A stretch of DNA of 63,999 nt, counting the filler, from Chrysochromulina tobinii (lineage: Eukaryota): NCBI GenBank assembly GCA_001275005.1. It is 5 parts of 5 records of this genome, joined end to end, with 100 filler letters (N's around TTAATTAATTAA, not from the genome) between each part and the next. Parts side by side here need not be neighbours in the genome. Positions count along the whole stretch, not along the records: positions 1 to 22,486 come from JWZX01000911.1; 4 more parts are not named here. One strand, given 5' to 3'. A program made the translations under genes and the position numbers. Below the pieces are notes generated by a model, which searched no databases, was not told the DNA's origin, and saw only the letters and a program-made list of their open reading frames with translations. Of the stretch, positions 4,822 to 52,461 are shown one piece after another (position 1 is the first letter of the stretch; every line of letters starts with the position of its first letter).

Positions 4822-7776
4822 ATGGCGGCCAGCAGCGCAGCTGACCCGTGGGCCCTGCCCGAGGACGCTGCCGCTAAGTACGATGCCTTCTTCACTATCT
4901 GCGCAAGTGGCGGCAGCCACGTCAATCGTACGCAGGCAGGGCCGCTCTTCGAGCGTGCGGAGCTGCCGCCGCAGCAGATGGCCATCATCTGGTCTCTCTC
5001 TGACATCGACCTCGACGGTCGCCTCAATAGTAACGAGTTCCGCGTGGCCATGCATCTTGCGACGCTCGCCGTGGCAGGGCAGCCGCTTCCTTCGCGGCTG
5101 CCTCCCGTACTTGAGCTCATCGCCCGTCCCCGACGAGCGAGCGACGAGCGATCCACGAGGATGACGACGCAGCCGCCCCATAGTCCCGAGACCAGTTCGG
5201 GCACGAACCTGATCGCTGACTCACGAATCACCATGTACAAGGTCGTGACCTCCGCGTTCGTCAATGCACAGGACTTGCTTGATCCGGGCGTGATTTTGAT
5301 GTGGATGGACATTGCGGCGTGCTTGGCAGCCGAAAGGCACACAAAGACGAGCTCCGTGACGCTCTCGATGGACGATCTCCACTTTGACACGATGGTGCGT
5401 CTCGGAGCGACCGTGCACTTGGAAGCGACGCTCCACAAAGTCTTTGGCACATCGATGGAGGTCGGATGCACCGTGTCTACATCGCAACCATCGGGCCGCG
5501 ACAAGTTCGTGTGCGCCGCATGCTTCACCTTCGTGGCGCTCGGTACCGACGGCAAGAAGATGCGCGTCGCCGAGGCGCTTGCAGTGACGCCCGAGGAGAA
5601 GTTTTTGTCGACGATTGCGACTGAGCGTCGCGCGTGGCGGCTGAAGCGCTCGGCGCTGGAGCTCGAGGCGCGCGAGGGCGCCGAGTCGAGCCAATCGCTA
5701 GACGTGGCCATCGAGGAGGATGCGGTGCTAAGCGGCGGTTGTGCCGCCGGTGGCAGCTGCTGTGAAGGCGGCGTGGAAGAAGCGGCGCCGACGCCCTTGG
5801 TGACCTACTCGATGACTCAACTCGTGCTGCCTAATATGGCCAACCACCACGGCAATACCTTCGGAGGTCAAGTGATGGCGTGGATGGCCGAGGCCGCGAC
5901 AGTCGCCGCCAACCGCCAGGCGTTCGAGTCGGTACCCGCCTCCCACCTCGGCGCGATCTCGCACGTCGAGATCGCGCTCGTGGATGCGCTACAGTTTCAT
6001 GCCAAGTCAGTCGTAGGCGATCGCGTCGTGCTGCATGCAAAAGTGACACGTGTCTTCGGCTCGTCGATGGAGATCTGCGTCACCGTCGAGGCGTACGGCG
6101 CGACCAGCACCGAGGTGCGCCAGCCCCAGCACGGCCTATTCACAGCACGGCCTATTCACAGCACGGCCTATTCACGACGACGCATGCGACCTTGAACCCT
6201 TCGCATGCCAAACCCAGCCCTCGTCCGCATCCAGGGGCGCCTTCTGATGGCCACTGATGGCCACTAATTGCATCCAGGGGCGCCTTCTGATGGCCACTGA
6301 TGGCCACTGATTGCCTCCCTCATTGCCTCCAGGTGCGTCACATCAACACGGGCTACTTGACGATACATGTGAAGGCCCAGAGGCGCCGAGGTGGGCGCTA
6401 CCTCGACCTGCCCCTGCGCCCGTCGCGCGCGCCACCCGCGACGGACTTGGATGCGCATGCGGCACACGCGGGGGCGCTCGTGCGTCTCCGCGTGCGTGTA
6501 CAGCGTCGCCAGATGCTCTCGTTACGCTCGGACGCAATGACGTGGAGCCCGTTGCTCACAGGTGCGCCCTGCGTCCGAGTGCCTCTAAGTGCCTCTCTAA
6601 GTTCCGCTGATGGCCTCTCTAAGTGCCGCTGATGGCACCTCTCTAAGTACTCTGCGCGATTGCTGACTCGCAAAGGAGCCCTGATGACCGCTGATGACCA
6701 CTGATAACCGCTGATGACCTCTGATGACCGCTGATGACCGCTGACTCGCAGAGGAGCTTTGCATTTGCAACGTGCTCGGGCTGCTCCGGGTGGTGGGCCA
6801 GCAGCCACCGGCCGTGCACTGGGAGGTCCTCTCGTTGACCTTCCCCGGGCAGGTACTCACCTGGACTCGAACCTGGACTCGAACCCGAACCCTAACCCGA
6901 GCCCGGAGACCCTGCCTGGAGACCCCCCTGCGGCAAATAGTTGATGGCCGCTGATGACCTCTGATGACCTCCCAGGGCAGATGGTGCGCCCTGATGACCG
7001 TTGATGACCGTTGATGACCGCTGATTATACCGCTGATGACCTTCCCCGGGCAGGTTGTGCGCCGAGGTTCGCTACCCTTTGACGGCTCGCTCAGCGCAAG
7101 CGACGTGATTTGCGTCGCGCATGCAACTGATCTCTTCGGGCGTGGCACGCATGCGCTCAAGGCGGTCACTGTCGTGCAGGCGAGCACGACGCGCACCTTC
7201 GCGGCGGTGACGGACCTGCAGCAGCGCGTGCGCTGGGATAGCCTCCTCGAGGCGGGCAAAGTCCATCGCACCCTTGATGAGAAGAACGCTCTCGTGTACT
7301 TCAAGATGAAGCCCCTCATTACGGGCGGCCGACCACATGACTACACGTTGCTGCAGTCTTGGCGGCGGGAGGCGGACGGCAGCTACGTGATTGCATCTCG
7401 CTCGGTGGTGACTCCCGAGCTGCCCCCCGTGCGCGGCTGCACGCGCGGAGCGGTCCTCCCCTCTGGGTTTCAGTTAGAGCCTCTGGACGACGGGCGTACG
7501 CGGGTGACGTACATCGTCCAGATGCAGCAGCAGCGCGGCATCACCGGCGCCTTCGGCTCGGCCATCCTGCGGCGCGGCGCCGAGCTCATGCGGCGCAGGT
7601 TCGTGCTGCTCGAGGAGCTGCTGCGCACGGAGGCGGCGCCCAAGACGGCGCCGACTGCGAGCTGGGCGCCGCGCTGGGGCGCTCGCGGCTCGGGCATTTC
7701 GGCCGTACCCACGCCCGCGCCCGTGGCGCTTGAATTGATGATGCCGGGCGCGGCCGCGAGTGCGACGGACCAGTAG
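4822..7776 (+). CDS. EH domain + two hotdog acyl-CoA thioesterase domains + START domain (ACOT11/12-like); exons 4822-6114, 6333-6561, 6752-6852, 7054-7776
   Basis: EH: IIWSLSDIDLDGRLNSNEFRVAMHL. Hotdog motifs WMDIAACLAAERH, FGTSMEVG, ANHHGNTFGGQVMAWM, FGSSMEI. START: RVRWD, YVIASRSV, RGAVLPSGF, TRVTYIVQ. Three GT-AG introns restore the frame. Confidence 0.8.
6115..6332 (+). other. Spliceosomal intron with a 16-bp x3 repeat and TGATGGCCAC minisatellite
   Basis: GAG|GTGCGC ... TGATTGCCTCCCTCATTGCCTCCAG|GTGCGT; splicing gives TE|VRHINTGYL. Confidence 0.8.
6562..6751 (+). other. Spliceosomal intron with TGATGACC(G/A/T)C minisatellite
   Basis: ACAG|GTGCGC ... CTGACTCGCAG|AGGAG; splicing gives LLT-E-ELCICNV. 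Confidence 0.75.
6853..7053 (+). other. Spliceosomal intron bounded by an exact 19-bp direct repeat
   Basis: TGACCTTCCCCGGGCAGGT at 6836-6854 and 7037-7055; internal 10-bp minisatellite. Confidence 0.85.
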
Positions 7777-8275: not shown

Positions 8276-11200
8276 ATGCGCGTAGCGTTCATGGATGCGT
8301 TGTCGCTGCGGGGCCGCAAAGCCAAGGCTTCACCACCACCAGACATCGCTCTGCCGGCGACCACGCCAGCCTGCGCCGAGCCACAGACCATGGCATCGCA
8401 ATTGTTACAAGGCGCACTGGATAACGAGTTGACCAGCACGCTCGTCCTTGCGCGGCAGCACTCAACAATCATGGACGAGTCAGTCGACGAGGCTAGGAAC
8501 CTCGCGCCGGATCCGCATCGGCGCGAAACAGGAGTGGCCGTGGAGGCCGCGAGATGGGTTGCCGCACTCACGGGCGCTGCACTGCCCCAGGCGGTGGAGG
8601 ATGGCGACAAGGTGCTTGATAGCCTACACGAGTGGCTGCGCGACGGCGTCATCCTATGCCGCCTCGCTCATCGGCTCGGCGCGATGCCGAGCCTGCTGCG
8701 CGCAGAAAGCAACGGCAGCAGTAGCAGCAGCGGCGGCGGCTGCAGCAGTAGCAGCAGCGGGAGCGCCAGCAGCAGCGGCAGTGGAAGCGGCAGTGGCAGC
8801 GGCAGCGGCAGCGGCAGCGGCAGCGGCTGCAGAAACGGGAGCGACGCGCTGCACAAGGCCAAGAGCCTCGACCGTATCTCCCAGTTCGTTGAGGCGTGCC
8901 GCAAGCTAGGGATGCCTGAGCCTGACCTCCTATGCGGAGCCGACCTCGCCGAGGGCAAGAACATGCAATCGGTCGTGCGCAGCCTCCACTCGCTCGGGCG
9001 CGTCGTGCAGCGGCTCGACAGCTACGAGGGCCCCACGCTTGGCGTCAAGCTGGCTGTGAAGAATGAGCGCTCCTTCACAGCGCAGCAGCTCGCCGAGGCG
9101 CGGGCGATGCCCACGAGGCTCGGGCGCGACCAAGCGGCCGCGGCGAAGGCGGCGGGCGGGCCTGGCCTCGTCTCCGCCCCTAGGCAAGTCTCCTCTGGGG
9201 TCGGAGGCTGGGGCTCACCATCCTCGTCCGTATCGGAGGTCATCTCGGAGGTCATCTCGGGCTCACCATCCTCGTCGGTACATGTGGTCTCACCGTCAGT
9301 CATCAGTCTGGAGCCGCCCTCATCGCCGCAGACAGCTGCGCCGGGGACGATACAGAAGCTGCACGGGCACAAGGGCAGCCGGTCGGTGGAACCAGCGGAC
9401 GTGACAAAGCAGTCGGAGGCGATACAGATGGGCCGGAGTCAAAAGATGGCCTTCGAGCAGAAGCGCGCGGCCTTCGAACGCTCGATGGAGCCAAGTGGAG
9501 ACGAAGCAGGCGCCGTGACGGGCGCGCCAGAGGCCGGCGCGATGCCGCCGCCGAGCGGCGGTCGTATGGCGCTCGGTACGGCGCGCAACTGTCGAGGGAC
9601 GGCCGAGCCCGCGCCGTACCGAGCGCCCACGCCCACCCCGGCCGTCCTGTACAGTCGTCCTCATATGTCGCCCATGGAGCGCAGGGAGATGCGCCATGGG
9701 GCAGAGGCGCTCGCCGGGGAGGTCTCCGCCAGGGCGGCGCAGCTGCTGCAGCTCAGGCCGGCGACGCTCGATGAGCTGCCCGAGCCGCGAGAGCCGGCCC
9801 CGCTCAAAGTCTACTCGCGCTCCATGCATGGCGCCATGCATGCACGGGCCCTTCCGCCGGTGGCTGCCGTAACCTCAACGGCTGCCGTAACCTCGAAAGC
9901 TGCCGTAACCTCCACGGCTGGGACCCCATCGCTGGCGGCGCCCCCGCCCCGTGCAAGAGTGGATGTGACGCCTTTCTCAACGAGCGCGCCGGTGGCTGCA
10001 ACGGCGGCGCCGACTGCGCCGGTGGCTGCAACGGCGGCGCCGACTGCGCCAGCGGCTGCGACTCTTTCGCTCGAGGAGGAGTCCGCGGCGGTGGAGGGGG
10101 CAGCGGAGGCACCGGCGGCGGATACGGAGGTGATGATGGCGCCGGCGAAGCACCCTGCCGAGGCGGAGGCACAGATCATCTCGGAGGTAATCTCGGACCC
10201 TGCCGAGGCAGAGGCACAGATCATCTCGGAGGTAATCTCGGACCCTGCCGAGGCGGAGGCACAGATGATCTCGGAGGTAATCTCGGACCCTGCCGAGGTG
10301 GAGGCACAGATGATCTCGGAGGTATTCTCGGGGGCGCGGGAGCGAGTGGACCGGATGCGAGCAGCCCCAGTCCCGGCTAAGACGCCCACGACGCTGCAAG
10401 CCATGAGCCCGTGCAAGGATTCGCGCTCGGTGCTGCGCTTGGAGCTCGAGATCGTAGCGAAGGAGGCGAAGGAGGCGAAGGAGGCGAAGGAGGCGGCGGC
10501 GGAGGCGGAGGCGGAGGAGGTGGAGGAGGCAGAGGAGGAGGAGGCGGCTGCAGCTACTACAGCCTTGCCGCCGCCAACTGCCACCTGCAATGCAGCACCC
10601 TGCGACTCAGAGCCTGCCAAAACCGAGGCCATCGCTCCATGGCTGGTCGTGTCGGCGGAGGCGCTTGAGACGGCGCCCGACGCGTCCGACGCGCCCTTGC
10701 GGCCTTCGGCAGCGGAGCGACAAGCGCCGTCTCAAGCGCCCTCGGGGGAGGCAGGCCTGAAGCGATCGCCAGTGCTAGCTGAGACGGCAGCTACGAAGGC
10801 CACTTCAACGGCGGATCAAGTGACTGTTGAAGCATCAGAGGTTGCTCCGAGAGCAGAAGACGCTCCGAGATTACCTCCGAGATTACCTCCGAGATTACCT
10901 CCGAGATTACCTCCGAGATTACCTCCGAGATCACCTCCGAGAGCAAAAGACGCCATCGACCTCGCCACGGCCCCCAAAACTTCAAGCTCCGCTGCGGCAG
11001 ATTCTCGTGCCAACGCCACAGCTTTGTCAATTGCTTCGTCGGTGAGCACGCCGCCGGCCGGCCCCGCCGCTGCTCCGTCGTGTACCGGTACGCTGCCAAA
11101 GACAGCCCCACAGCCATCGCCGAAGACGCCCCCGCAGCTGCCGCCGGACGTGCAGCAGCCAGTCGCTCGTCAAGAGAGCCCTGCCGAGCGCGCGGTGCGT

Positions 11201-12575
11201 CTCTCTGGCGAGCGGCTTGAGTTGCTACACTCGTCTCGCTCGTCACGGCGCTTGACCCGTAGAGCTTGTGGGGACTTGAGCAGCCAGGGCAGTGGGGACT
11301 TGAGCAGCCAGGGCAGTGGGGTCTCGAGCAGCCAGGGCAGTGGGGTCTCGAGCAGCCAGGGCAGTGGGGTCTCGAGTGGCCAGGGCCTGGGCTCGCCGCG
11401 GCGGCTGCCCTTCAATCTCGTGACCCGAGATCGCCCCTCGTGGAACAATCATTCGACCCAAGATCGCCACTCACCGAGCTCTGAGCAACTTGAGTCGCCG
11501 ACGGGACGGCCCTCGCTCCCACCGCCGGCGGGACGGCCGCTCTCGCTCAAACCGCCCTCGCTCCCGCCGCCGCTGCCGACAAAGGTGCTCCCCTCGCCAG
11601 CGGCAACGCCACAGCCGCCAACGACAGCTTGGGAGCCGATACTCCCCCCACCGATACTCCCCCCACCGCCGACACTCCCCCCATCGCCGATACTCCCCCC
11701 ACCGCCGCATTTAACGGCCGCACTGACATCGTCGTCGGTGCCATCGGCGCAGTGGAAGGAGCCCTCAATTCGATTGGCACTGCCATTGGCGCCCCCTGCG
11801 CCATTGCCGCCAGTTGCAACGGCGGGAGAGGCGTGCGGCGTGACGCCGATGGCAAAGTTGCCGACGCCAACTATGGCGGCGGTCACGGCGCAAAGGTCCC
11901 CATCACCATCACTCGCTACGCCAGCCTCTTTACCGCCTCAGCCATCTCCACCACGCGTCCCGTCAACACCGCTGCCGCTTGAGCGACCACCACCACCAAG
12001 CCTCATGCCAGCATTGTTGCCGCTCGAGCTACCACCTCGCGCGACGGCGGGCGGGACGGCGCTCGGGACGGCGCTCGGTGCCTCGGAGGCGGCAGATGAG
12101 GATCTCGCCGATCAGGATCTCGCCGATCAGGATCTCGCAGATGAGGATCGACGAACGGCGAGCGTCCAGAAGCTTTGCGACGCGTCGGCGGCCGACATCT
12201 CGACCCTGTACACAGTGCAGGACCTGCTCGGCGAGGGCCGCTTCTCCAAGGTCTATTCGGTCGTGGAGGAGGCGACTGGGCAGGTGCTTGCGCTCAAGGA
12301 GCTCGACAAGGGCGCGATCGTTGAGGATGAGGAAGGCCTCGAGATGCTCGAGGCGGAGGTGCTGGCGCTGAAGCGCGCGGGCAATGCACCGCACGTCGTA
12401 CGGCTCCAAAAGGTCATCGCCTCACCCGATGCCATCTATCTCGCCATGGATCGCGTGCCCGGCCGCGCGCTCGTCGACGTGATAGACGAGCGCGGCGCGC
12501 TCGAGTGCAGCTACGTGCGCCACCTGATGCTGCAGCTGCTCACGGCTTTGGCGGCGCTCGCCGAGGTCGGCGTGG

Positions 12576-12607
<32 letters not shown>

Positions 12608-13528
12608 GTGAGCGAGGAGGAGACGGAGCGGCCGCACCTGACGCTCATCGACTTTGGGTACGCGGCACTGCTGGGCGGCGGCGACGCGCCCAATGAGCTG
12701 ACGGGCGTCGCCGGCTCGCCCGAGTACGCGGCGCCCGAGGTGCTCTCGTGGATTGCGGCGGAGGCAGACGAGACGGGCGAGGTGGTAGGCGAGCCATACG
12801 ACGCGGGCTGCGACGTGTGGAGCGTGGGTGTGACGGCGCACGTGCTGCTGTGCGCTGAGCTTCCCTTTGACCTGCCCAAGGAGGCGACCGAGGAAGCGCT
12901 CGTCGCCGCCGCGCGCCACGTTGACCTCTCCTTCCGTCGTCTCAAGGGTGAGGCGAGGGTGAGGCGAGGAAAGGTGATGGCGACGCTGGAGGGCGAGGCG
13001 GCGATGGCGCCGGCGCGCGCGTTTGTACGCGCATGCATGGCAGTGGCGCGCCCGGAGCGCCCTTCGGCACAGCAGTTGCTGGACCACCCGTGGCTTGGCG
13101 GCAAGGCAGTAGCGCAGGTGGCATCGGTGGAGGTGGTGTACGTGTTCACCGCCGAAGCGGCCTCCGACGTGAGAGAGCAGCTGGGCGTGACGCTGTCCGC
13201 GGGCGATCCGCTGACGGACCCGCTGCTGGCCGCAATGCGTGAGGGTCTCCAAGTGCCGGCAAGCATGACGAACGACCAACTCAAGGCGGCATTGGTGGCC
13301 CAGGGCTTTCTCGAATGCAAGACCGACGAGAGCGGCCTCAGTCACGGCCTCCGCGCCACCCCGTCTGCTCCGACCCTTGCACCCAAGCCGCTGACGGCGC
13401 TGGCGACGACGGCGCTGGCGACGCCTGCATCTGGCCCTGGCCAGAGCGCGACGCACGCGGGTCCCGCGAGGTCTATCCAACGCACGTACGGTGCGCCGCA
13501 CTATTGTAGCCCGAGACAGGCCCCGTAA
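8276..13528 (+). CDS. Calponin-homology domain + long low-complexity linker + CAMK-like Ser/Thr kinase
   Basis: CH: LHEWLRDGVILCRLA, ISQFVEACRKLG, DLAEGKNMQSVVRSLHSLG, calponin-like NERSFTAQQL. Kinase: GEGRFSKV, ALK, HRDVKPEN, DFG, APE, DVWSVG. Single open frame. Confidence 0.8.
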
Positions 13529-13918
13529 CCAGAGGTGGGGCCATGGAGTGTGAGCCCACCTCGCGTGATCCCGTGTAAGTAAGTAAGTAACTCACGCCTA
13601 TCGGCAGCGTACACGTGGCGAGAGCCCACCTCGCGTGATCCCGTGCAACGCCTGATGAGCCCGCTGTGCGACCACGGGACCTGATGATCATGTTTTGCCG
13701 TAAGTACTCAGAGTGATGACGAGACTTACTCAGATCTCAGTAGAGTGCTGTCTTCTGGGACTAGGAACTGTGCATATTAGTGTGTGCTGGATATGCAGTG
13801 AAATCACACTTCACGGGAGGGTGGTGCTGCGCTGACGGTCGTTAGCGGGACCCGGCACGAGCGCGAGCGTGGCTGTGATTCCTGCAGCTTCCCTCGGATG
13901 ATTTTATACAACAACTCG

Positions 13919-16847
13919 CTACCCGCGCGTATCACCGCGCGCCGCGGCGGCTCGGGTCACCGACGCAGTCGCCACGGCGCGTGCGGCAGGCGAGTGCAGC
14001 AGCGTCGTAACCTCGCGCGACGCGACGACCTTGCGCGCGGCGCGGCAGCCAGCGGAGTACTCAAACTGTCGCAGCGCGCTGCTCAGCGCTTGGCGGGAGC
14101 GGGCACGCCTCTTAAGCGGATGCATGCGCATGTCGACGCCCTCGCACCGGATCGCCGCGGCTTCATTGGCGGCGGCGGCTACGTCACCGAGTCTCGCGTC
14201 CAAGAGCACGCTCGCGAGCTCGGCTGCATCGAGCAGGGCCTGGTTGGCGCCTTGTCCTTTGAATGGTGCCATCGGGTGCGCCGCGTCGCCGATGAGGGTG
14301 GTGCACGAGGCGAGCCCAGATTGCATCTCGTCGCGCGAGATGGCGCCGTCGCCGTTGAGGGTGGCGGCGCTAGCCAGCATTGGCGGTGCTGGCCCCTGCG
14401 TTGGCGGCGCATGCAACGAAGTCGGCGGCGCACCCTCAACGGCGCGCGGCATGGCCGTTGGAAGCGAGGCCATCAGAGGTCATCAGAGGCCATCAGAGGT
14501 CATCAGAGGTCATCAGAGGCAATCAGAGGTCATCAGAGGCAATCAGAGGTCATCAGAGGATGACGATCACCTGCATGGCCGTTGGAAGCGAGGCCACTGA
14601 CGCCGCGGAGGCCGGCAGCGCTCCACCCGGGGTCGGCGCTCGATACGGCGCCCCTAAATAGGCAGGTGGTGCTCGATACGGCGCTCCTTCCGGAGGCACG
14701 GGTGCTGCTGCAGCCGCGCTCGAGACGGCGCGCTCATACGGACTCAGCCGGTCGTAGATTGGGTAGCCCGTCACGTCGTTGGCACGTGTGGCCGCTAGCA
14801 GCGCGTGCACCGCAGGCGAGCACCATGCGCTACAGCGCTGCCGGGCCTCAGCGAGCAGAGCCCCGCCGCCGCGAGATGAGAGCTCCCGCGCCGCCTCCTC
14901 GGCCATCGGGAATGAGAACTGCCACATGGTGGCGCTCGCCATGTCGCTCGTCGTGTCGCTCGTCGTGTCCACGCTCGCATCCGAGGCCACGCCCGCGCGC
15001 TCAAATGGCATCGCGTACATCCGATTGGCGCCATCGACCCATTCCACGACAGTGTGCGCGTCGAAGAGCGACGTGACGTGCGACGTAACGTGCGACGTGC
15101 TGGGCGCCGTGCTGGGCGTCGTGCTGGGCGTCGTGCTGGGCGCCGTGCTGGGCGCCGTGCTGGGCGTCATCTCCTCGGCCTGCGCTCGCAGGGCGGCCGT
15201 TGCAGCGATGCCGAGGATGACGATCACCTGCATGCAATGAGGGAGGCAATCAGAGGTCATCAGAGGCCATCAGAGGTCATCAGAGGATGACGATCACCTG
15301 CAACGCGCGCAGCGGCGCGCTGTCTGCCTCGCCGCTCTCCTGCACGAGTGCCGCGCGCACTGCGGACCGAATCCCATCGGCACCGACGAGAACCTTTGCC
15401 CGGACGGTGCGGCAGGTAAGCGGCAGTGGCGCTGCCTCCTCTGCACCCTCTCCATGGCCGCCGATTGCCACTGATTGCCTCTGATTGCCTCTGATTGCCT
15501 CTGCACCCTCTCCATGGCCGCCGTGCTGTGCTTGATCGCGGTACTGCTCGACCGTCACTTGGACGATGTTGCATGGCCTGGTGGACGCCGCCACGCCCGC
15601 CGCCGCCACGCCCGCCGCCGCCACGCCCGCCGCCGCCACGCCCGCCGCCGTCACGCCCGCCGCCGCCTCGCCACACATCTCTTTCTCATCATCAGGAGCC
15701 GCCTCGTCCAAAGGCGTGACGCTGATTGCATCGCTGATTGCATCGCTGATTGCATCGCTGATTGCATACTGATGATCTCCCTCATCAGGAGCCGCCACGT
15801 CCATCGGCGCTTCGCCGCTCGACCCTTCCCTACGCACACGTGCCCCGCGGAACCGGAAGCCCCAGCGCACCGTACCCGGCGACAGGCCCGCGTACAAGAG
15901 CGCGCGCAGCGACTGGCGTGGAAGGTGAACCTGTGGGGAAGTGGCGCGCCGTGGTGAGCACGTGCATGCAAGGCGTACAAGAGAGCTCGCAGCGACTGTC
16001 GCGGGAGGTGCACATTTTGCTTGTGTGCTGCCGTCGAGCCCGCCCGCTTGCACTGTGCCGCCATCGAGCCCGCCGCCGGCGCGCCACTGGCGGAGGCCAC
16101 GCCCGTGCACGCGCTCTCGGCCGCAGCCGCCGTCCCGTCAATTGCCCTAGGAGCCTCGATGGGTTGCTTGCCCGACGCCAAAGCCAAAGCGCTGTCGACT
16201 CGCGTCGCCGCGTCAGGCGCAGCGGCGCGCGTGGCGGCGCCATGGCTGCCAATCAGAGCGCCGGAGAGCGCGTCGAAGGAGTAGTGTGCCGTGCTGTGCA
16301 GCCCGGCCGTCGTGACCGCCTGCGTAAGCCCAATGGCGCGCAGCGCGGTACCCCCCTGCTGCATCGTGAGCCCGTAGCCCTGACTGCGCTCGCCGATCGA
16401 CTTGTCACGCTCGTACACGGCGCATCGCACCCCTCGCTGCTGCAGAGCGAGCGCTAGCGCGAGGCCTCCGATCCCGCCGCCGATGATCGCGACGTCCACG
16501 GACTCGATGACCATGCCGTCCGCTGGAAGAACACGGCCGCCATTCTCTGCACCGCCACTTACCTCGTTGGCGTCGGCACTTTGGACCGCGTCGCCGCGCT
16601 CCGCATCTGAAATCGGGCTCCGAAGCATCAAGCCACTGCCGCTGCAGGCCGAGCAAGGCACCATGGGCGGCGGAGTGGGCGGCGCAGTGGCGACTTTGCG
16701 CTTCTTTTGATGAGGCACCTGGCCCGTGCCATGGCAAGCGACACAGCTTCGATAAGCAGGGATCGCAAGTTTGCACAGGCGAACCCATTGGGGCTCGTGC
16801 TGACTAGCTGCAAGAGCTGGCGCGTCGCTCCACGCTGGCGACGCCAT
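13919..16847 (-). CDS. FAD-dependent monooxygenase with N-terminal CxxCxGxG zinc finger; introns 15931-16013, 15228-15297 and about 14396-14570
   Basis: IIGGGIGG, VYERD, LVGADGIRSAVR and LIGDAAHPMAPFKGQGANQALLDA spread over four ORFs joined in frame by GT-AG introns; CVACHGTG and CSACSGSG at the N-terminus. Confidence 0.8.
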
Positions 16848-17041
16848 GGGGCAGCCGAGGCGTCGTGCACCAGGTGTGAATTGCTGTTCACACCTTTGAT
16901 ACTGTACCCCACGTTTTGGCAGGTTACTAGTAAAACAACACTTCATTATAATTTCTCCTCGCGTTTTCGAGCGGAGGTGCGGAGCGTTCACGTCCATATA
17001 ACAATCTTAGATCGGCCAAGCGTGCGGCGCAAACTCGCCCA

Positions 17042-22486: not shown

Positions 22487-22586
22487 NNNNNNNNNNNNNN
22501 NNNNNNNNNNNNNNNNNNNNNNNNNNNNNNTTAATTAATTAANNNNNNNNNNNNNNNNNNNNNNNNNNNNNNNNNNNNNNNNNNNN
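22487..22586. other. Artificial contig linker (N44-TTAATTAATTAA-N44); also at 38347-38446, 48991-49090, 61209-61308
   Basis: Identical spacers with stops in all six frames. Confidence 0.97.
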
Positions 22587-27416: not shown

Positions 27417-27718
27417 TGATTTTGTATCTCGGTATATCTTGATGTATCTTGATGAAGAGTCCAGGATACATGTACATGTATCCTGATGTATCTTGATATG
27501 TACATGTATCCAGTGTGACACCTTTTAGTGACACCAAGGAAGCGCGCAAGATACATGTATCTTGATGTATCTGATATGTATCCCCTATGTGTACTTGTAT
27601 GTGTATCTTGGACTCCTTTAGGGTAGGGAGATTCAGGTTACGTGTAGAATAAATGCAAAACATTGAGATACATGTAAGATACGTGTATTCTCTTCCAATG
27701 TAACAGAGCATGTAAGAT
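27417..27718 (+). repeat. Solo internal fragment of the GATACAT-rich transposon family
   Basis: Colinear with about 30847-31110 (shared TGATGAAGAGTCCA, GTGACACCAAGGAAGCGCGCAAGATACATGTATCTTG, TAACAGAGCATGTAA). Confidence 0.85.
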
Positions 27719-29959: not shown

Positions 29960-31193
29960 ACAGTCAGTATGACGGTGCGGATGGAGGCGGCGTTGATGCG
30001 GTTCCAGCGCGCCTCGGCGCTCGGGCGGTGTGGGGGAGTCGAGAGGGTACAGTACAGTATACTGTAACCGGGAACAGTATATACGGGGTCGACCTTGTAC
30101 GGCCACGAACTAGGAATTAGTGTTTCGTCACTAGGACTACGTACGCAATCTCCGTATTATAGTCACACCGCGCGCTACACGCGCCCCCGTGGGCGTTCAC
30201 ACAACACACACCTCGTCAGCACTCACGTGCTCTCCTCACCTAGAGGGATCGGCATCCTCGCGCAGTCCCCACGGCGCGACCAAAGGGCAGGAGGGCGACG
30301 CACGCGTCGGACCCCCCTACACACTAGCCAACACACAGGGGGGTCAGGGGGGGTTTCTTCTCCTTTTGGGGGGGGGCTCCTATCGGATACGTATCCTGAT
30401 GTATCTTGATGTTTTCTTGATGTATCCTGCATGTATCCAGATACATGACACACAAGATACAATCACGATACAAGTCAGATACATGCGTGATACATTTAAA
30501 GATACACACAAGATACGTATATCGAGCCCTACTTGCGACCGCGCTTGGATACCCCCAAACCCCCGAGATACGTGTCCCGCATGTATCCCGCATGTATTCC
30601 GCATGTATCCCGCATGTATCTTGATTACCTCTGAGGATACATGTATCTCGCATGTATCCTGCACGTATCCCGCATGTCTCCTTCATATCAGATACATCTC
30701 TCTCTGGATGCATTTGAGATACATGTATCTCATCATGTATCTTGGATGTATCCCGCATATATTTTGATCACCCTTGCAGATACATGTACCTCGCATGTAT
30801 CCCGCAGATACGTACCTCGTCATGACGCGTCCAAGGTACATGTATCATGATTTTGTATATCGGTGTATCCTGATGTATCACAAGATGTATCGTGATGAAG
30901 AGTCCAAGATACACGTATCCTGATGTATCTTGATATGTATCCAGTGTGACACCAAGGAAGCGCGCAAGATACATGTATCTTGTTGTATCTGATGTCGTGA
31001 TGTGTATCCCAAAATGTATACATGTAATGGACTCCTTTGGGATACGTGTAAAACACATGCAAAATGTCAAGATACATGCATTCTCTTGGAATTAACAGAG
31101 CATGTAAAGATACATTTGAGATACATCTGGAAACACTCAACGTGTATCCTTCAGGATACATGCAGGCCACCATAGGCGCCCAGATAATGACCC

Positions 31194-32310: not shown

Positions 32311-32951
32311 AGGTATGTCGAAATCAAGATACAATCAAGATACATGTACTTGTACATGCAGGATACATCAAGATACATCCAGATACGTATCCGATAGGAA
32401 ACTCCCCCCCCCCAAAGGATAGGAAACCCCCCGTCACCCACACACAGGGTACGAACGCGGCACGGCTCCAGTGACGGTAGTCTCAGTCCTCCTCACACTC
32501 TGTACTCTCTCAGCAGCCGTTCGGTTGAGGGCGGGCCGCGCCGGGTGGGCAACCAAGAATGGGCGGCTGCTGCGCTCCCACCTTCGGACCAGACGCGCGG
32601 CACCCGCGATACATGTAACCGCGACGGTCTACGCGGCTCGACGCGTACAGCGGTCCCAGTACCACAACACATACAAGATTATAAATCGCGCATTAAATCG
32701 CACATGGCATGGCCCAACACCTCTCAGACACACACCTCCGCGGACCGAGATCGAAACAGGGGCGGGATGCCTAGCAGGGGCGGGTATCTCGATGGCTGAT
32801 GCTGTGTCCATTCCCACACAGTCCGGTCGCACCGCATGATCGCTTCGAAGAACCCGTGCTCAGATGCCACCCGCCCTCGCGCAGCTCCAGTTGCACAGCA
32901 CCACTCGCCTCACCCCTGCGAACTCACTATCTCGATCTCACCCCTGCGAGC

Positions 32952-35900
32952 TCACTGCTCGGCTGTGCGCCCCCAGTAGAAGAGCCGTGAGCGCATCTCC
33001 TGGAAGAAGGATCCCGAGGCCGAGGCCTCATTGTACACGAGCGTCGATGCCTCGGGCTCGTCGAGTTGGGCGATGGGCTCATCAGAGGCACGGCGATGGC
33101 TGGCATTTCGCATATCTGGCGCATCGGAGGCATGGCGGCTCGGAGCAATCAGTTCACTCGCCTCCGACCGCCTCGATGCCTGACGACTCGGCCGCAAGGA
33201 AGCTGACGCCTGCCGGCTCGGCAAGAGCGGCAGCGCACCGTTCGTGGCGGTCGCGGAGCGGGAGACGGGCAGGCCATTCGAAGAACGGCTTCCCCCTTCC
33301 CCCTCGGTGCCTGGGGGCGTCCATTGGAGCCACGGCCAGTGGCCGTCCAGTGGCCGAGTAGCGGAGACCCCACGGCGGACAAGAATTGCCGACGGCTGCC
33401 GACTCACCGACGGCATTGCCGACGGCTGCCGACTCACCGACGGCATTGCCGACGGCTGCCGGCTCACCGACGGCATTTCCGACGGCTGCCGACTCACCGA
33501 CGGCATTTCCGACGGCTGCCGACTCACCGGTGGCGAGCTCATCGATGGGACGGGCTGCGAGCTGGACTGCGAGTTGGAACGTGTCGGACGAGGCGGCAGC
33601 GCCGCGTTGGAATCCATCGCCTTGTGCGCCTGGATGATCGCCTTGAGGGCGCGGTTGGGCAGCAGCATCTCCGATGCCAGCGACTGTCGCGACACAGGCG
33701 AGCGAGGTACCCGCCCCTGCGAGCGTTCGTGCCGAAAGTAGCTGAGGATCCCCTCGCGCTCGTACGTGACGCCGTCCATAGCGATGACGGGATCCTCGAT
33801 CGTACAGAGGGTGAGCGGGCACAGCAGCGCCTCCGCCATGTACTGCTGCGGGTTCGTGATCACGATCGCGTCATCCGCCAGGCGACGCTCCTCGGAGAGG
33901 TCGGCGGCCTCGGGTCCCTCTGCGGCGAGGACGGCAGCGAGGATGATGTCGATGAGACCATCCGAACGCGGGTCGGCGTCGAGCAAAAGGTGTGTCGCCC
34001 GCCGCTCGCCACGCCGCATCTTTCGCACCGCCTCCGTGATTTCCCAACCGCCCTCTTCCTCCATCTTGAGAAAGCCCGCCTCGATCTTCGCCCACCCATC
34101 CTCGTCATCGGCCCCCTCGGTGATGAGCCGTACGAGGGTCTTGATGCCGAGCTGCACATGCAGTCCCTTGGCGTGGCCTTCGAGGTGCACCTGCGGTGGG
34201 TAGTACCGCTTGGCGGACTCGCACGCGCACACGTAGCGCCAGATGTGCTCGATGAGCGTCTGCGTATTGCCGTCTCCAGGGGCCGTCGCCACCAAGTTCC
34301 AGATCGCGCGCTCGCCCTGCCGCATCGCGTTGACCGCATCCTTGATTTTCCAGCCCGATCCGACCAGTGCGTCGATGGCGAGCACGACGTCTGACACGTG
34401 GGAACCCGCGGCGCGGTCGCCGACGAGGATGTACGCCGTGAGCAAGGCGAGCATCGACTTCTTCTCCCCCTCCTCCTTGATGAGCGCCTTGGCCTGCCCT
34501 TTGATGGGTAGCTTGGGGACCGGTAAATGTGCTGGGTCAAAGTAGCCAATCTGGCTCGGCTTGAGACCCACTAAGTCACGCCCGACACCCTCCAAACCCT
34601 CCACACCGCCCAGCGCGGCGCGGAGGGCACCCTCCACACCGCCCAGCGCGGCGCGGAGGGCATCGTGGTCGAGGGCGCCGTCGGCGCTGAGGGCGTCGAG
34701 GTCGACCCCCATCGCGGCGCGGAGATCGCTGAGAGGGTCGCTTCCAGCGAGGTGCCTCGCCATCGCCTCTGCCATCGACTCCACGTCGGGCCGTTGGTAA
34801 GCCGCTTCGCCAGTCGCGATCGCCGCTGTGGGCACCGCATCTGGAGGCTCTTCCCCGTCCAGGAGGCTCGTCAGGAGGTCCATGCCGTGCACCGACGCCA
34901 CCAACCCGTCGAGAGTGGCCACACGCGCCCGGAGCACGTGGGCCTCACGTCGGGTCTGCTCGCGTGCAAGCACGAGAGGCGCGCCCGCCTCCATCGTGGC
35001 CACCGCGATGGCGTTGTACCGGTCATGCCCGCCGTCAAAGCCGCGCTCATTCCAATGGTAGTCTCGGGGGTGCGACGGAGGGTCGGGCAGCGGCAGGAGG
35101 CGGATGAGAGCGCCGCCAACACTCCCGTACAAAGCCTCGGTCATCGCACCGCGGCCGCCGCCGTCCGTCACAGCATGGACCAGGACTGTGAACGATCGGG
35201 GACCCCCGGGGGCATGTGTGACCTGTTGCGACGCCATCGCCAAAGGGCTGAGGTCGGCTTCGTCACGACTCTGTCGCTCTAGGTCGACCCGACGAGGCGG
35301 CGCCGCCGCTGTGGCGGCGAGCAGGGTTGGAGTCTCGCGGCGCACGACCACGACGACCTGGTTGCGTGTGAGAACGTGCTCGAGATGGCGCGCCTCCTCC
35401 TCCGTCTGGGCCCGTGCGATGAGCCCGAGGCCGTTGGCGGTGATGCCTGAGCGCGCAGGGTGGGCGTGGGAGTGGGGGCGTTCGTGAGAGAGCATCCAGG
35501 GGAGATCAGGGGAGGTCAGGGGAGATCAGTGGAGGTCAGGGGAGCTCGCCACGCACCAGCGCGCATCTCGAGCATCATTTCGCCACTCGTGTGCCAACCA
35601 CGATCTGGCCACGTCAGGGAGGCTCCGCTCGCATTCGTCCCTATGGCATTGATCACCTGCATCATCGCATGGGCAACGTCAATCGCATAGGGTCAGATCC
35701 AGGGAGATCCAGGGAGATCCAGGGAGATCCAAGGAGATCCAAGGAGATCCAAAGAGATCTGGGTAAATTCAAGGAGATCCGGGGAGATACATGGAGATAC
35801 AATGAGATCCTAGGAGATCCAAGGAGATCCACGGGAGATCCACGGGAGGTCATCTCACGGGCTCCGCCGCAAAATGTCAAGGAAGACATGGCAAAGGCAT

Positions 35901-49090: not shown

Positions 49091-52000
49091 CAGCCGCCGC
49101 CGCCGCCGCCTCCGCCAGCCCCGCGCCCACCGCGGCGCGTGCGAGCCTGCCGCCGTCCTCGCCGGCAGTCGGTGGGCGCGCTGTCTTGGGCGCCTCGCCG
49201 GCCGGGGGCTCGCTACTATCGGGGCTCACTCTGCGCACACCCGCGTCGCGCAACGTCGCCACCCCCAGCACGCCTTCCGCCGCCGCCACCACCACACCCG
49301 CCGCCACCGCCGCCGCCGCCGCCACGCCCGCAGCCAACACGTCGGCCGGCTCCACCCTCGAGTCGCAGCCGCCCGCGCGCCCAGCCGACGGCAGCATGGT
49401 GGTGGCCGTTGACACGCCGAGGCCATCCGAGGTTTCGTCTACCGGTAGTAAACCTACGAACGAGATACAGCCTGTGCCAACGGCCACCCCCAATCGGGAT
49501 GGCTTCTCTGCCGCCGCTCCCGCGAGCGCTGTCGCAAGCGCTGTCGAGCCGTCGCAGACGCCCTGTGGGAAGAGCGCGGCAGTAGCGCCAGACAGCGTGG
49601 CAGTAGGGCCGCCCGACACCGCCGCCGCTCCCACCGCCGCCGCCGCTCACACCGCCGCCGCCGCTCACACCGCCTCCGCCCCTACCGCCGCCGCAAGCGA
49701 AGCAGCGTCGGCCAGCTCCTTAGACGCGTCGACGGCGCTCGATGCCAGCGCAGTGGAAGCACTCGAGACGCTCCGCAACGCGGCGCCGAGCGTGCTGAGC
49801 GAGCGCACGGAGGCGGCCGCCGTGGTGGTCCAGCTCGAGGCGAGCGTCGCCAGCATGGAGGCGGCGCAGCTCGAGGCGACCGCCAAAGACGAGTTCGAAG
49901 TGGCCGAGGCGCTCGAGGAGCCGCTCAGGACGGCGCGCGCCGAGCTGGGCGCGGCGCACGCGCGGCTCGCCTCCGCCACCGCCGCGCTCCATGAGTACCG
50001 GTTGGAGCTGCTCGCGGCCTCGGGAGCAGCCCTCGAGGAGCTTCAAGGCACTGCGCTGCAGCTCGTGCGCTCGCGCGACGAGCAGCTGGCGCAGGTGGCG
50101 GCCATGCGTGAGGCGGCGCGCGAGGCCAGCGCGGCGGCCTCGGAATGGTGCCAGGGCGAAGCCGAGCGGCTCGCCCTCGACACGGCGCGTCTGAGGGAGG
50201 ACGAGGCGGAGCTTGCGTCGGAGACCGAGGCGATCGAGGGGCAGATACGAGAGGCAGCCGCCCCCGAGGACGAGGCGCGCGCGAGCTGGCTCGTGAAGCA
50301 CACGGCCGCGCAAGCTAAGGTCGAGGAGCTGCGTGCAATGCTCGCGGCGGCGCTCGTGGAGGAGGCCGAGTGCGCTCGGCAGGTAGCTCGGCATGACGAG
50401 AAGCTCACGGCCGTGCGCGCGTCGTTCGAGAAGCCCCTTGCGAAGCTCGGGCTGCGTCGCGACGCCCTCTTGACGAAACTGGGCGCTCTCGAGCACGCCG
50501 GCGCGGAGCTCGCGCGCCAGCGGCGCGAGCGTGTCGCGTCGTGGCATGCCGCGCGTGGGGAGGTGGCGGCCAAGTCCGCCGAGCTTCGTGCTCTGCGGGA
50601 GAGGTGCGTCGCAGCTCTGCGGATGGCCTCTGATGACCCTCCTCATGACCTCTGATGGCCTTCTGATTGCCTCTGATGACCCTCCTCATGACCTCTGATG
50701 GCCTTCTGATTGCCTTCTGATTGCCTCTGATGACCCTCCTCATGACCTCTGATGGCCTTCTGATGGCCTCTGATGACCCTCCTCATGACCTCCGATGGCC
50801 TTCTGATTGCGTCCCTCATCAGGTACGTCGCCCTTCGTGCCGAGCGCGAGACGCGGCGCGCGGCGGCGAGGCTGCTGCGGCTGGTCTGCGAGCACTCTCG
50901 AGCGAGCGAGCAGGCGACGGCGGCCAGCCGCGCTCGGTTGGCGCCCACGGAGGAGGAGGCCGCCGCCGTGAGCGAGGCGCTCGGTGCGGTTCGCACGGCC
51001 GCTCTTGGGCATAAGGCCGAGCTCGAGGCAGTCCGAGAGGCACTCAAGAGCCTCGCGGAGCGTCAGCCGGAGCTCGTCGAGAGGAAGAGGGCCGCGGCGG
51101 CCGCTCGGGAGTTCAAGTTGGCGGGCCTGGTGGCGGTGGAGCTCAAGGCGATGGCGGCGGAGGAGGAAGCACTGACCGCACGACAAGAGGCTCTCCGTCG
51201 ACAGACGCTCGCGGATGACACGTCCATTCTCGTGCTTGGCGCGGCCGAGGCCGAGGCGCGTGAAGAGGCACGCCGGCAGCGCGCGGCGGCGGACGTGCGG
51301 CTGAGCAGGCTGCTGGCGGCGCAGCAACGGATCGGCCGGCGGATGCTCGACGAGGCACTCGCCGAGGGCAAGGGCGAGGGCGGTCGCGAGGCGGACTCCG
51401 GCGCCGTCCTGAGCGCCGAGCAAGCGCTGCTTCGAGCGCACCTCGACGCACTCGCCGAGTGGCGCGCGGCGCTCGTGACGGCGCGCGCGCCCAAGGCGGG
51501 GGACGGGGGCGTGGGCGAGCCGGAGGCCCAGGTGGTGGAGGAGGAGGCGGGCGCCGTGGTGAGCGCTTGCATGCACGGCGAGCAGGAGGCCCAGGTGGTG
51601 GTGGCGGAGGAGGAGGCAGGCGAGGCCCATGAGCCACATCGAGCCGTGGTGAGCACTTGCATGCACGGGGAGGCCGACGAGCCCAGAGAGCCACGGGACG
51701 ATGCGACTGACGCAACCGACGGGGACGATAGGGATGACGGGGACGCGGCGGCCGAAGTGGACGACTCTCTTGAGGCATGGCAGCCAGCGCCCGACACGGC
51801 GCTCGACGACGAGGCCTACGAGGAGGTAGAGCTGTCTGCCGAGGCGCCGACGGTGGCCACGTCCACCGATGAGGCGAGCGCCGAAGCCGAGCGCGTCGTC
51901 GCGGCAGCGGTGGCTCAGGCGTTGCTGTCGACTGACGATGCGTCGGTGGCCGATGCTGCCGATGCTGCCGATGCTGCCACGGCTTCGGCACTCGTGGGCG

Positions 52001-52461
52001 CCGCCGTTGCACGAGCGCTGCAGGAAGCGAATCCAGAGCGCAGCGCCGCCGTGCCCGCGCTCGAGGCTCATCTGGAGCCAGTGGCGGAGCTAGAGACAAA
52101 GCCAGAGGAACCAAATGCGGAGCCGTCCGAATCTTCAGTGACGAAGCCTGAGGAACCAAATGCGGAACCGTCCCTATCTTCCGTGACGAAGCCTGAGGAA
52201 ACAAATGCGGAACCGTCCCAATCTGGAGTGGACGCGGCTGCGGGCGCGATGGCAGCTGACGAAAGCGCGGCGGCAGCTGGCGTGAGCGCGGCGGAGGTGC
52301 AGGCGATGCGGGCGCGCGTGGGCGCACTCGATGAAGCCATAGATGCCGCCTGCGCTGATGAGGACTATGACTTGGCCGACGAGCTCGAGACAGCGCGGCG
52401 GGAGCTCACCGAGCGGCTGGCAAAGGCCGAGGTGGCCACAGGGGACGGCGAATGGCTATGA
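49091..52461 (+). CDS. Long coiled-coil protein with UVR-like motifs, 5'-truncated; intron 50604-50822
   Basis: AKDEFEVAEAL, AAAAREFKLAG, ACADEDYDLADEL; two same-frame ORFs joined by a 219-nt GT-AG intron. Confidence 0.65.
50604..50822 (+). other. Spliceosomal intron composed of higher-order TGATGACC/TGATTGCC repeats
   Basis: GAG|GTGCGTCGC ... TGATTGCGTCCCTCATCAG|GTACGTCGC. Confidence 0.85.

Follow-up and report, generated by a model that had tools for sequence, protein, structure and literature searches.

The window, that is, the whole stretch of 63,999 nucleotides analysed here, comes from Chrysochromulina (tobinii/parva group), a freshwater alga. Of 10 proteins of the window, 7 had exact entries in the protein collection, in clusters at 90% identity that include named members from Chrysochromulina tobinii and C. 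parva. As shown in Table 1, it contains a minus-strand gene for an FAD-dependent monooxygenase, and exon 2 of this gene carries two antisense repeat inserts, where sense and antisense refer to the strand of the repeat relative to that of the host gene. The strand of the gene was determined using Pfam, the alignment with homologues and a spliced RNA contig. When the three GT-AG introns of 83, 70 and 175 nt are removed, the spliced model gives a protein of 916 aa with no internal stop.

Table 1. Features of the monooxygenase locus and other repeat inserts in the window.
Feature	Position	Strand	Basis or remarks
Host gene, FAD-dependent monooxygenase (FAD_binding_3)	13919..16997	-	Pfam, homologues, stop-free spliced model, RNA contigs
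Monooxygenase exons 1-4	16997-16014, 15930-15298, 15227-14571, 14395-~13919	-	modelled splicing
Sense family-B insert, modelled 83-nt GT-AG intron	15931..16013	-	donor from first duplicate, acceptor from element
Sense family-A insert, modelled 70-nt GT-AG intron	15228..15297	-	20-bp duplication
Sense family-A insert, duplication offset 124, 175-nt intron	14396..14570	-	RNA junction
Antisense insert 1	15438..15523	+	26-bp duplication (15438-15463, 15498-15523), 34-nt family-A filler 15464-15497
Antisense insert 2	15689..15803	+	21/22-bp duplication (15689-15710, 15782-15803), 71-nt filler
Antisense 12-mer insert, offset 48	9211..9280	-	in + strand CH-domain/kinase ORF 8276-13528
Four 45-bp units, each with duplicated exon piece and antisense CCGAGAT-type 12-mers	10152..10331	-	in frame, kinase ORF
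Sense CCGAGAT-type 12-mer insert, offset 90	10845..10953	+	in frame, stop-free (RLPP repeats)
Antisense family-B insert, offset 63	51514..51610	-	in + strand ORF 50773-52461

The splicing of the 175-nt intron is seen in an RNA contig of the poly(A) library (X14 rec 12), which links 14394 to 14570. The filler of this intron contains the 19-nt donor junction of the 70-nt intron, 700 bp away, and this string was found only in the monooxygenase gene among 124 sequences. For the 83-nt intron, another RNA contig (X16 rec 26) ends at the predicted acceptor, at 15930, with 14 further letters unaligned, which is consistent with splicing. The 83-nt intron is missing from the relatives P0003 and P0004, and its allele in P0001 is 78 nt long and in frame; this shorter form is also stop-free, so that it could be read through. 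At the VIVIL site of the 70-nt intron, which resembles the repeat, P0003 and P0004 have an intron with a different repeat filler; this may reflect either parallel gain or turnover of the filler.

Two repeat families dominate the inserts. Family A consists of CTGAT(T/G)(G/A)CCT arrays ending in CCCTCATCAG, and family B has a GCATGCAAGTGCTCACCACG core ending in CCCCACAG. The sense 10-mer arrays contain TGA in every frame within three units, whereas none of the antisense frames is interrupted by a stop.

In insert 1, the duplication is exact over 26 bp at an offset of 60 and encloses a GATTGCC(A/T)CT filler; the insert adds 20 aa, and the minus-strand frame gives GGHGEGAE-AIRGNQRQSVAI-GGHGEGAE. 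Its complete 34-nt filler matches exactly in 5 other loci, and the insert has three branch-site-like motifs on the plus strand, whereas the gene strand has none. Insert 2, at an offset of 93, consists of four GCTGATTGCATC 12-mers followed by an intron-type 3' end at 15773-15788, and adds 31 aa. In both inserts the repeat lies on the plus strand, and both are in frame without stops in exon 2. The initial annotation had described two plus-strand repeat insertions with offsets of 60 and 93; its coordinates and peptide agree with those obtained here, the second duplication being 21/22 bp. The neighbouring 70-nt intron was considered as the donor of insert 1 and rejected, as the match of 18 nt compares with 17.3 nt in the control, and the search for a donor of insert 2 gave a best match of 22 of the 71 nt.

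The two relatives P0003 and P0004, which are 91-94% identical over exon 1, read QRGGHGDGAEEAAPLP without insert 1, and at the position of insert 2 they have a pure tandem expansion instead of the filler. Judging from these two close relatives without either filler, whose empty state is seen at the protein level only, inserts 1 and 2 are derived. In P0001, insert 1 is longer by 30 nt (30 aa long) and insert 2 is shorter by 24 nt; the latter allele is shared by P0002, P0121, P0122, P0124, P0125 and an RNA contig (X14 rec 13). The inserts are thus still changing between alleles, in steps of 30 and 24 nt, whereas the sense arrays often change by single 10-nt units. Both inserts lie in the loop between VRWG and GADGIRS, which is far shorter in the distant homologues P0005-P0007.

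The RNA contig X14 rec 13 spans 15472-15975 and contains insert 2 minus 24 nt, part of the insert 1 filler and the 83-nt intron. Because this intron is also retained, the contig may be pre-mRNA and is no proof of mature mRNA. X14 has no comparable long pieces of high identity in the kinase gene next to it, a finding that speaks against a source in genomic DNA. In a second RNA mapping at 96% likeness, the matches were mostly repeat copies from other loci and neither insert was bridged, the uncovered stretches being uninformative.

The relation between orientation and reading frame was determined using a family-A pattern scan of metagenome sequences, which gave at least 123 loci; after removal of 19 redundant ones, the set comprised 105 sequences and 0.71 Mb including the window. 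The loci were thus selected by the family-A pattern and derive from mixed strains or species. Viral contigs gave no match to the repeat pattern. The 14-mers of families A and B occur in 60-170 separate bins of the 0.71 Mb, where the count for family A is inflated by the search pattern. A flanking duplication is present at 331 of the 1011 motif clusters, and the frequency is above chance, since duplications flank 314 of 942 real clusters vs 5 of 300 chimeric controls. The duplication length is continuous from 11 to 61 bp, with quartiles of 19, 25 and 32 bp and hence a median of 25 bp.

The host strand was assigned using a codon model, an earlier iteration of which assigned 103 of 105 confident windows correctly, these windows being partly training data. 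Both flanks were confidently on one strand for 91 of the 331 events, the other 240 having no confident strand, and the offset was divisible by three in 12/12 antisense and 34/79 sense events. In the final table, duplicate alleles were dropped (L074, L043, L109, L080), insert 1 was added by hand, and L065, whose antisense assignment was rejected because of stops in frame and intron-type ends, was moved to the sense class. The offsets divisible by three then amount to 11/11 for antisense and 33/75 for sense. Outside the window the values are 8/8 and 33/75 (Fisher p = 0.0024), or 7/7 for antisense without the weak case L015 (p = 0.005). Stricter strand cut-offs give 9/9 antisense events, and looser ones give 14/15 and 13/17. 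When the strand is taken from neighbouring intron ends, independently of the codon model, the values are 5/5 (4 distinct) for antisense vs 32/76 for sense. This tabulation over 0.71 Mb, of the kind that the initial annotation had proposed for the whole genome, indicates that antisense offsets are not random with respect to three, and the claim that antisense copies persist only in multiples of three holds in the independent sample outside the window.

The antisense class might consist of chance cases or strand artefacts, namely sense introns of genes on the opposite strand, or dead genes. One case, L065, was such a miscall, and the antisense strand of the repeat, being stop-free, fools gene callers; metagenome "proteins" built of the antisense repeat peptide (P0233-P0352) are likely wrong-strand gene calls over introns. 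Matches to the repeat peptide were also rejected as a sign of translation, as a Pfam domain was found in 0 of 120 among the matches listed (120 of 151). Nevertheless, the strand of the monooxygenase gene is fixed by the three lines of evidence given above, Pfam domains confirm the host frame of L017 and L092 (the only two of 11 out-of-window frames submitted), and wrong-strand introns would have lengths divisible by three only about 44% of the time. An artefact is accordingly a highly improbable account of the antisense class.

On the sense side, an intron of the exact length with GT/GC-AG ends fits 62 of the 79 events, and among all 331 events a GT-AG fit is found for 147 when the element strand is read and for 41 when the opposite strand is read. 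By inspection, the sense events take two forms: the acceptor is carried by the insert and the donor comes from the first duplicate, or the donor is carried and the acceptor comes from the second. Among the sense offsets previously listed for the window, 70, 83 and 124 were recovered; 218 was not, and no exact duplication of at least 8 bp at that offset starts in 50571-50625. Sense cases with offsets divisible by three, absent from that list, are 78 (6662), 90 (10845) and 201 (6836). For the antisense offsets, 60, 93, 48 (9211), 45 (the array at 10152) and 63 (51514) were found again, and a second 48 was not located.

The sense insert at 10845-10953 lies inside the 1750-aa kinase ORF; no intron-type end was seen in it, and the TGA of the repeat is now CGA. 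It is apparently unspliced, and is an exception to the rule that sense copies are introns. It has 22 nt in common with the array at 10152, inverted, and a 12-mer of the kinase gene that occurs in only 3 of the 105 sequences is present in both orientations within 1.7 kb. Region 250-1100 of the kinase ORF gave no homologue at E<=1e-20 that could provide an empty site for either insert. The earlier division into sense introns and antisense in-frame copies is sound as regards the antisense offsets, but it is too strict for the sense class. Because the sense 12-mer with CGA in place of TGA persists in frame at 10845, survival depends on spliceability or an open frame, and a rule of "spliceable, or in frame and stop-free" describes the cases better than orientation as such.

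Further repeats were observed in the window. At 6836-7055, a 19-bp duplication with an offset of 201 encloses an intron with telomere-like (CGAACC/TAACCC) repeats and family-A units; because of these telomere-like repeats, other sequences can be seen to serve as filler as well. At 13552-13645, a 24-bp duplication with an offset of 70 encloses a GTAA-repeat filler unlike families A and B. Clusters of the 10-11-bp repeats GATACATGTATC / ATGTATCCCGC at 27423-27690, 30391-30935 and 32322-32386 lie in low-GC non-coding sequence and form a separate family. Arrays of the 10-mers CAGGGGAGAT / AGATCCAAGG at 35497-35842, near the start of the minus-strand ORF 32952-35495, are probably diverged family-A-like introns. 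Four pairs of 44-N runs, with 12 bases between the members of a pair, are found at 22487, 38347, 48991 and 61209.

The anatomy of the insertions was examined in 92 events by inspection, where the fillers start and end at varying points of the repeat. The junctions show microhomology beyond that of random flanks, with means of 2.9 vs 1.3 nt at the 5' side (n=201) and 3.1 vs 1.0 nt at the 3' side (n=225), values that are inflated somewhat by the maximal extension of the duplication boundaries. The 12 rows called antisense show the same trend, 2.8 vs 1.6 and 3.5 vs 1.3 nt, and since splicing cannot select there, this trend does not come from selection for splicing. For 77 of 265 fillers, a neighbour within 1.5 kb matches better than random clusters do, where about 13 would be expected, and 75 of these 77 local matches are in the same orientation; the filler supply may therefore itself be sense-biased. 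L062 contains an antisense in-frame insert and, about 770 bp from it, a sense intron; the two have 37 nt in common, inverted, that are found nowhere else. The similarity between neighbours could also come from later gene conversion. Blocks of exon plus intron end occur in tandem, in up to about six copies, in L003 (13155-13572), L062 (10377-10525) and L018 (790-937), and give serial or recursive intron structures.

These features have the appearance of a footprint of template switching in the repair of staggered breaks, the enzymes and the nature of the template, DNA or RNA, being a matter of inference. Polymerase theta makes templated insertions. In the proposed process, long overhangs left by a staggered DNA break, or else a 3' end that has stalled, would anneal through 2-6 nt of microhomology to a repeat intron, which may be nearby or elsewhere, and 15-100 nt would be copied. 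Rejoining upstream would then leave a duplication of about 25 bp of the gene. A sense filler would bring branch-site-like CTGAT motifs and often an acceptor, CCCTCATCAG or CCCCACAG, or a donor, and the other splice site would be supplied by the duplicate, resulting in a new intron. With an antisense filler nothing would be spliced, so only stop-free copies with lengths divisible by three would persist, in tolerant loops. It is probable that intron-derived filler is captured in either orientation by such repair, and that selection keeps the copies that are spliceable or in frame.

The initial annotation had called the insertion strand-agnostic at the DNA level. Both orientations do occur; equal rates do not follow, as the antisense class is about 7-fold rarer (11 vs 75 events) and mutation bias is inseparable from selection. 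Selection could account for this ratio by itself, and so could local copying with a sense bias. As for the DNA level, an RNA template in break repair would leave the same marks, and that part of the claim is not established.

Such an RNA-templated capture, in which a reverse transcriptase (LINE RT or Pol theta) would copy either nascent pre-mRNA or the RNA of excised introns into the break under the same selection, is favoured by the great abundance of the repeat in RNA-library contigs and by the nearby, same-orientation local matches, as expected of a cis transcript. Target-primed reverse transcription also gives variable duplications. However, no poly(A) tails were found among the 92 events inspected, numerous fillers represent internal fragments that have homology at both ends, the telomere-like and GTAA fillers at 6836 and 13552 bear the same duplication footprint, and inverted local copies exist. 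We therefore consider an RNA template unlikely, albeit worth keeping in mind.

A model in which excised introns are reverse-spliced into mRNA and then recombine as cDNA, the antisense copies being unrelated accidents, would fit the sense excess of about 7:1, and sense-only orientation is the argument for this model in Micromonas in the accessible text of PMC3879977. The model predicts whole introns in sense only and without a long duplication, whereas partial fillers, long variable duplications and both orientations are observed, and the antisense copies share the anatomy and the duplicate identity of the sense copies (0.97 in both). The argument of the initial annotation against reverse splicing is upheld on these grounds. 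For the duplication-flanked events reverse splicing is refuted unless a separate step makes the duplication, and we regard it as having next to no likelihood as the general explanation.

Taken further, break-repair capture would amount to a self-feeding, transposase-free intron factory, in which repair copies a branch-point minisatellite from old introns in both orientations, the same mutation giving new introns in one direction and, in the opposite direction, recurrent de novo peptide modules (AIRGNQRQSE, VIRGHQRSSE, DAIS), throughout the genome and with alleles that still segregate in lake populations. The two outcomes would arise from the presence of stops on one strand of the repeat and their absence from the other. 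This wider reading is tentative, and we lean slightly against it as a whole.

The origin of new spliceosomal introns has long been debated, and reverse splicing has been argued for on the ground that insertions occur in sense only. The antisense in-frame class is what the present finding adds, and it is a variant of known routes of intron gain: a single kind of DNA-repair accident likely makes either introns or short protein insertions, depending on the orientation of the repeat. The otherwise missing antisense class is visible here because the reverse strand of the repeat has no stops, and it provides an internal control indicating that an orientation bias can be produced by selection. Since the alleles are polymorphic and the alga can be cultured, the insertion rate, the template (DNA or RNA) and the selection on each outcome are directly measurable. 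In practice, such arrays also lead to genes being called on the wrong strand in metagenomes.

No account of this system was found in the literature searched, most subscription papers lying outside the search, and the accessible parts of PMC2784329, PMC4580454, PMC12130899 and PMC11282704 contain nothing on these repeats. In Micromonas, introner elements are described in the accessible text as repeated introns at novel positions, in sense only, and explained by reverse splicing (PMC3879977); the Chrysochromulina inserts differ in that 11 antisense events exist and that partial fillers are flanked by duplications with a median of 25 bp, rather than whole introns inserted without a long target duplication. 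In the tandem genomic duplication model, as given in the accessible part of PMC3296678, a duplicated gene segment supplies the splice sites. A pure block duplication of 89 bp that makes an intron, and by which the alleles L018 and L080 differ, resembles this model, but in most Chrysochromulina events the two copies are separated by foreign filler. Small tandem duplications of <100 bp arise from staggered breaks with 3' overhangs in mammalian cells (PMC8355091), which is a biochemical precedent, although the accessible text draws no link to intron birth.

The introners share with the present inserts a related sequence at many new intron positions, here in introns of unrelated genes, and one carried splice site with the other taken from the duplication, and some dinoflagellate classes make introns in both orientations, according to the accessible parts of PMC9860276 and bioRxiv 10.1101/2020.10.14.339549. 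A transposase-mobilised introner, that is, a non-autonomous DNA transposon inserted in either orientation, would explain the terminal motifs common to dozens of introns, and the accessible text of PMC9860276 reports, for a marine Chrysochromulina MAG, introners that carry one splice site and co-opt the other. The same text cites target-site duplications of 3-9 bp, and 4 bp in the MAG example, whereas those found here vary continuously without a fixed, family-specific short length. Inspection of the 92 events gave neither end-to-end similarity nor fixed termini or TIRs; the ends and the length are not fixed, and the terminus is missing from most antisense fillers. In addition, the Chrysochromulina inserts contain an internal minisatellite of variable length and show junction microhomology and local templating, and the apparent fate of their antisense copies is translation, not splicing. 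Mobilisation by a transposase is thus very doubtful. Three repeat motifs do not occur in the accessible part of the supplement of PMC9860276, but the present families may overlap with its Chrysochromulina families.

The case of Daphnia pulex, as described in the accessible text of PMC4202315, involves new polymorphic introns of about 80 bp that are bracketed by a direct repeat of the adjacent exon and attributed to the repair of staggered double-strand breaks with inserted DNA. In Chrysochromulina, too, a direct repeat of the target flanks the new intron, intron-less relatives exist, the filler is traceable to other DNA and the junctions show microhomology, to which boundary bias and later conversion may contribute. 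The differences from that account are that Daphnia has AT-rich introns and exon-intron repeats of 4-12 bp, compared with the longer duplications found here, that its accessible text mentions no antisense in-frame class, and that the Chrysochromulina filler is copied from existing intron repeats, because of which the process feeds itself. Overall, the system would seem to work like the break-repair intron gain of Daphnia combined with an introner-like self-copying.
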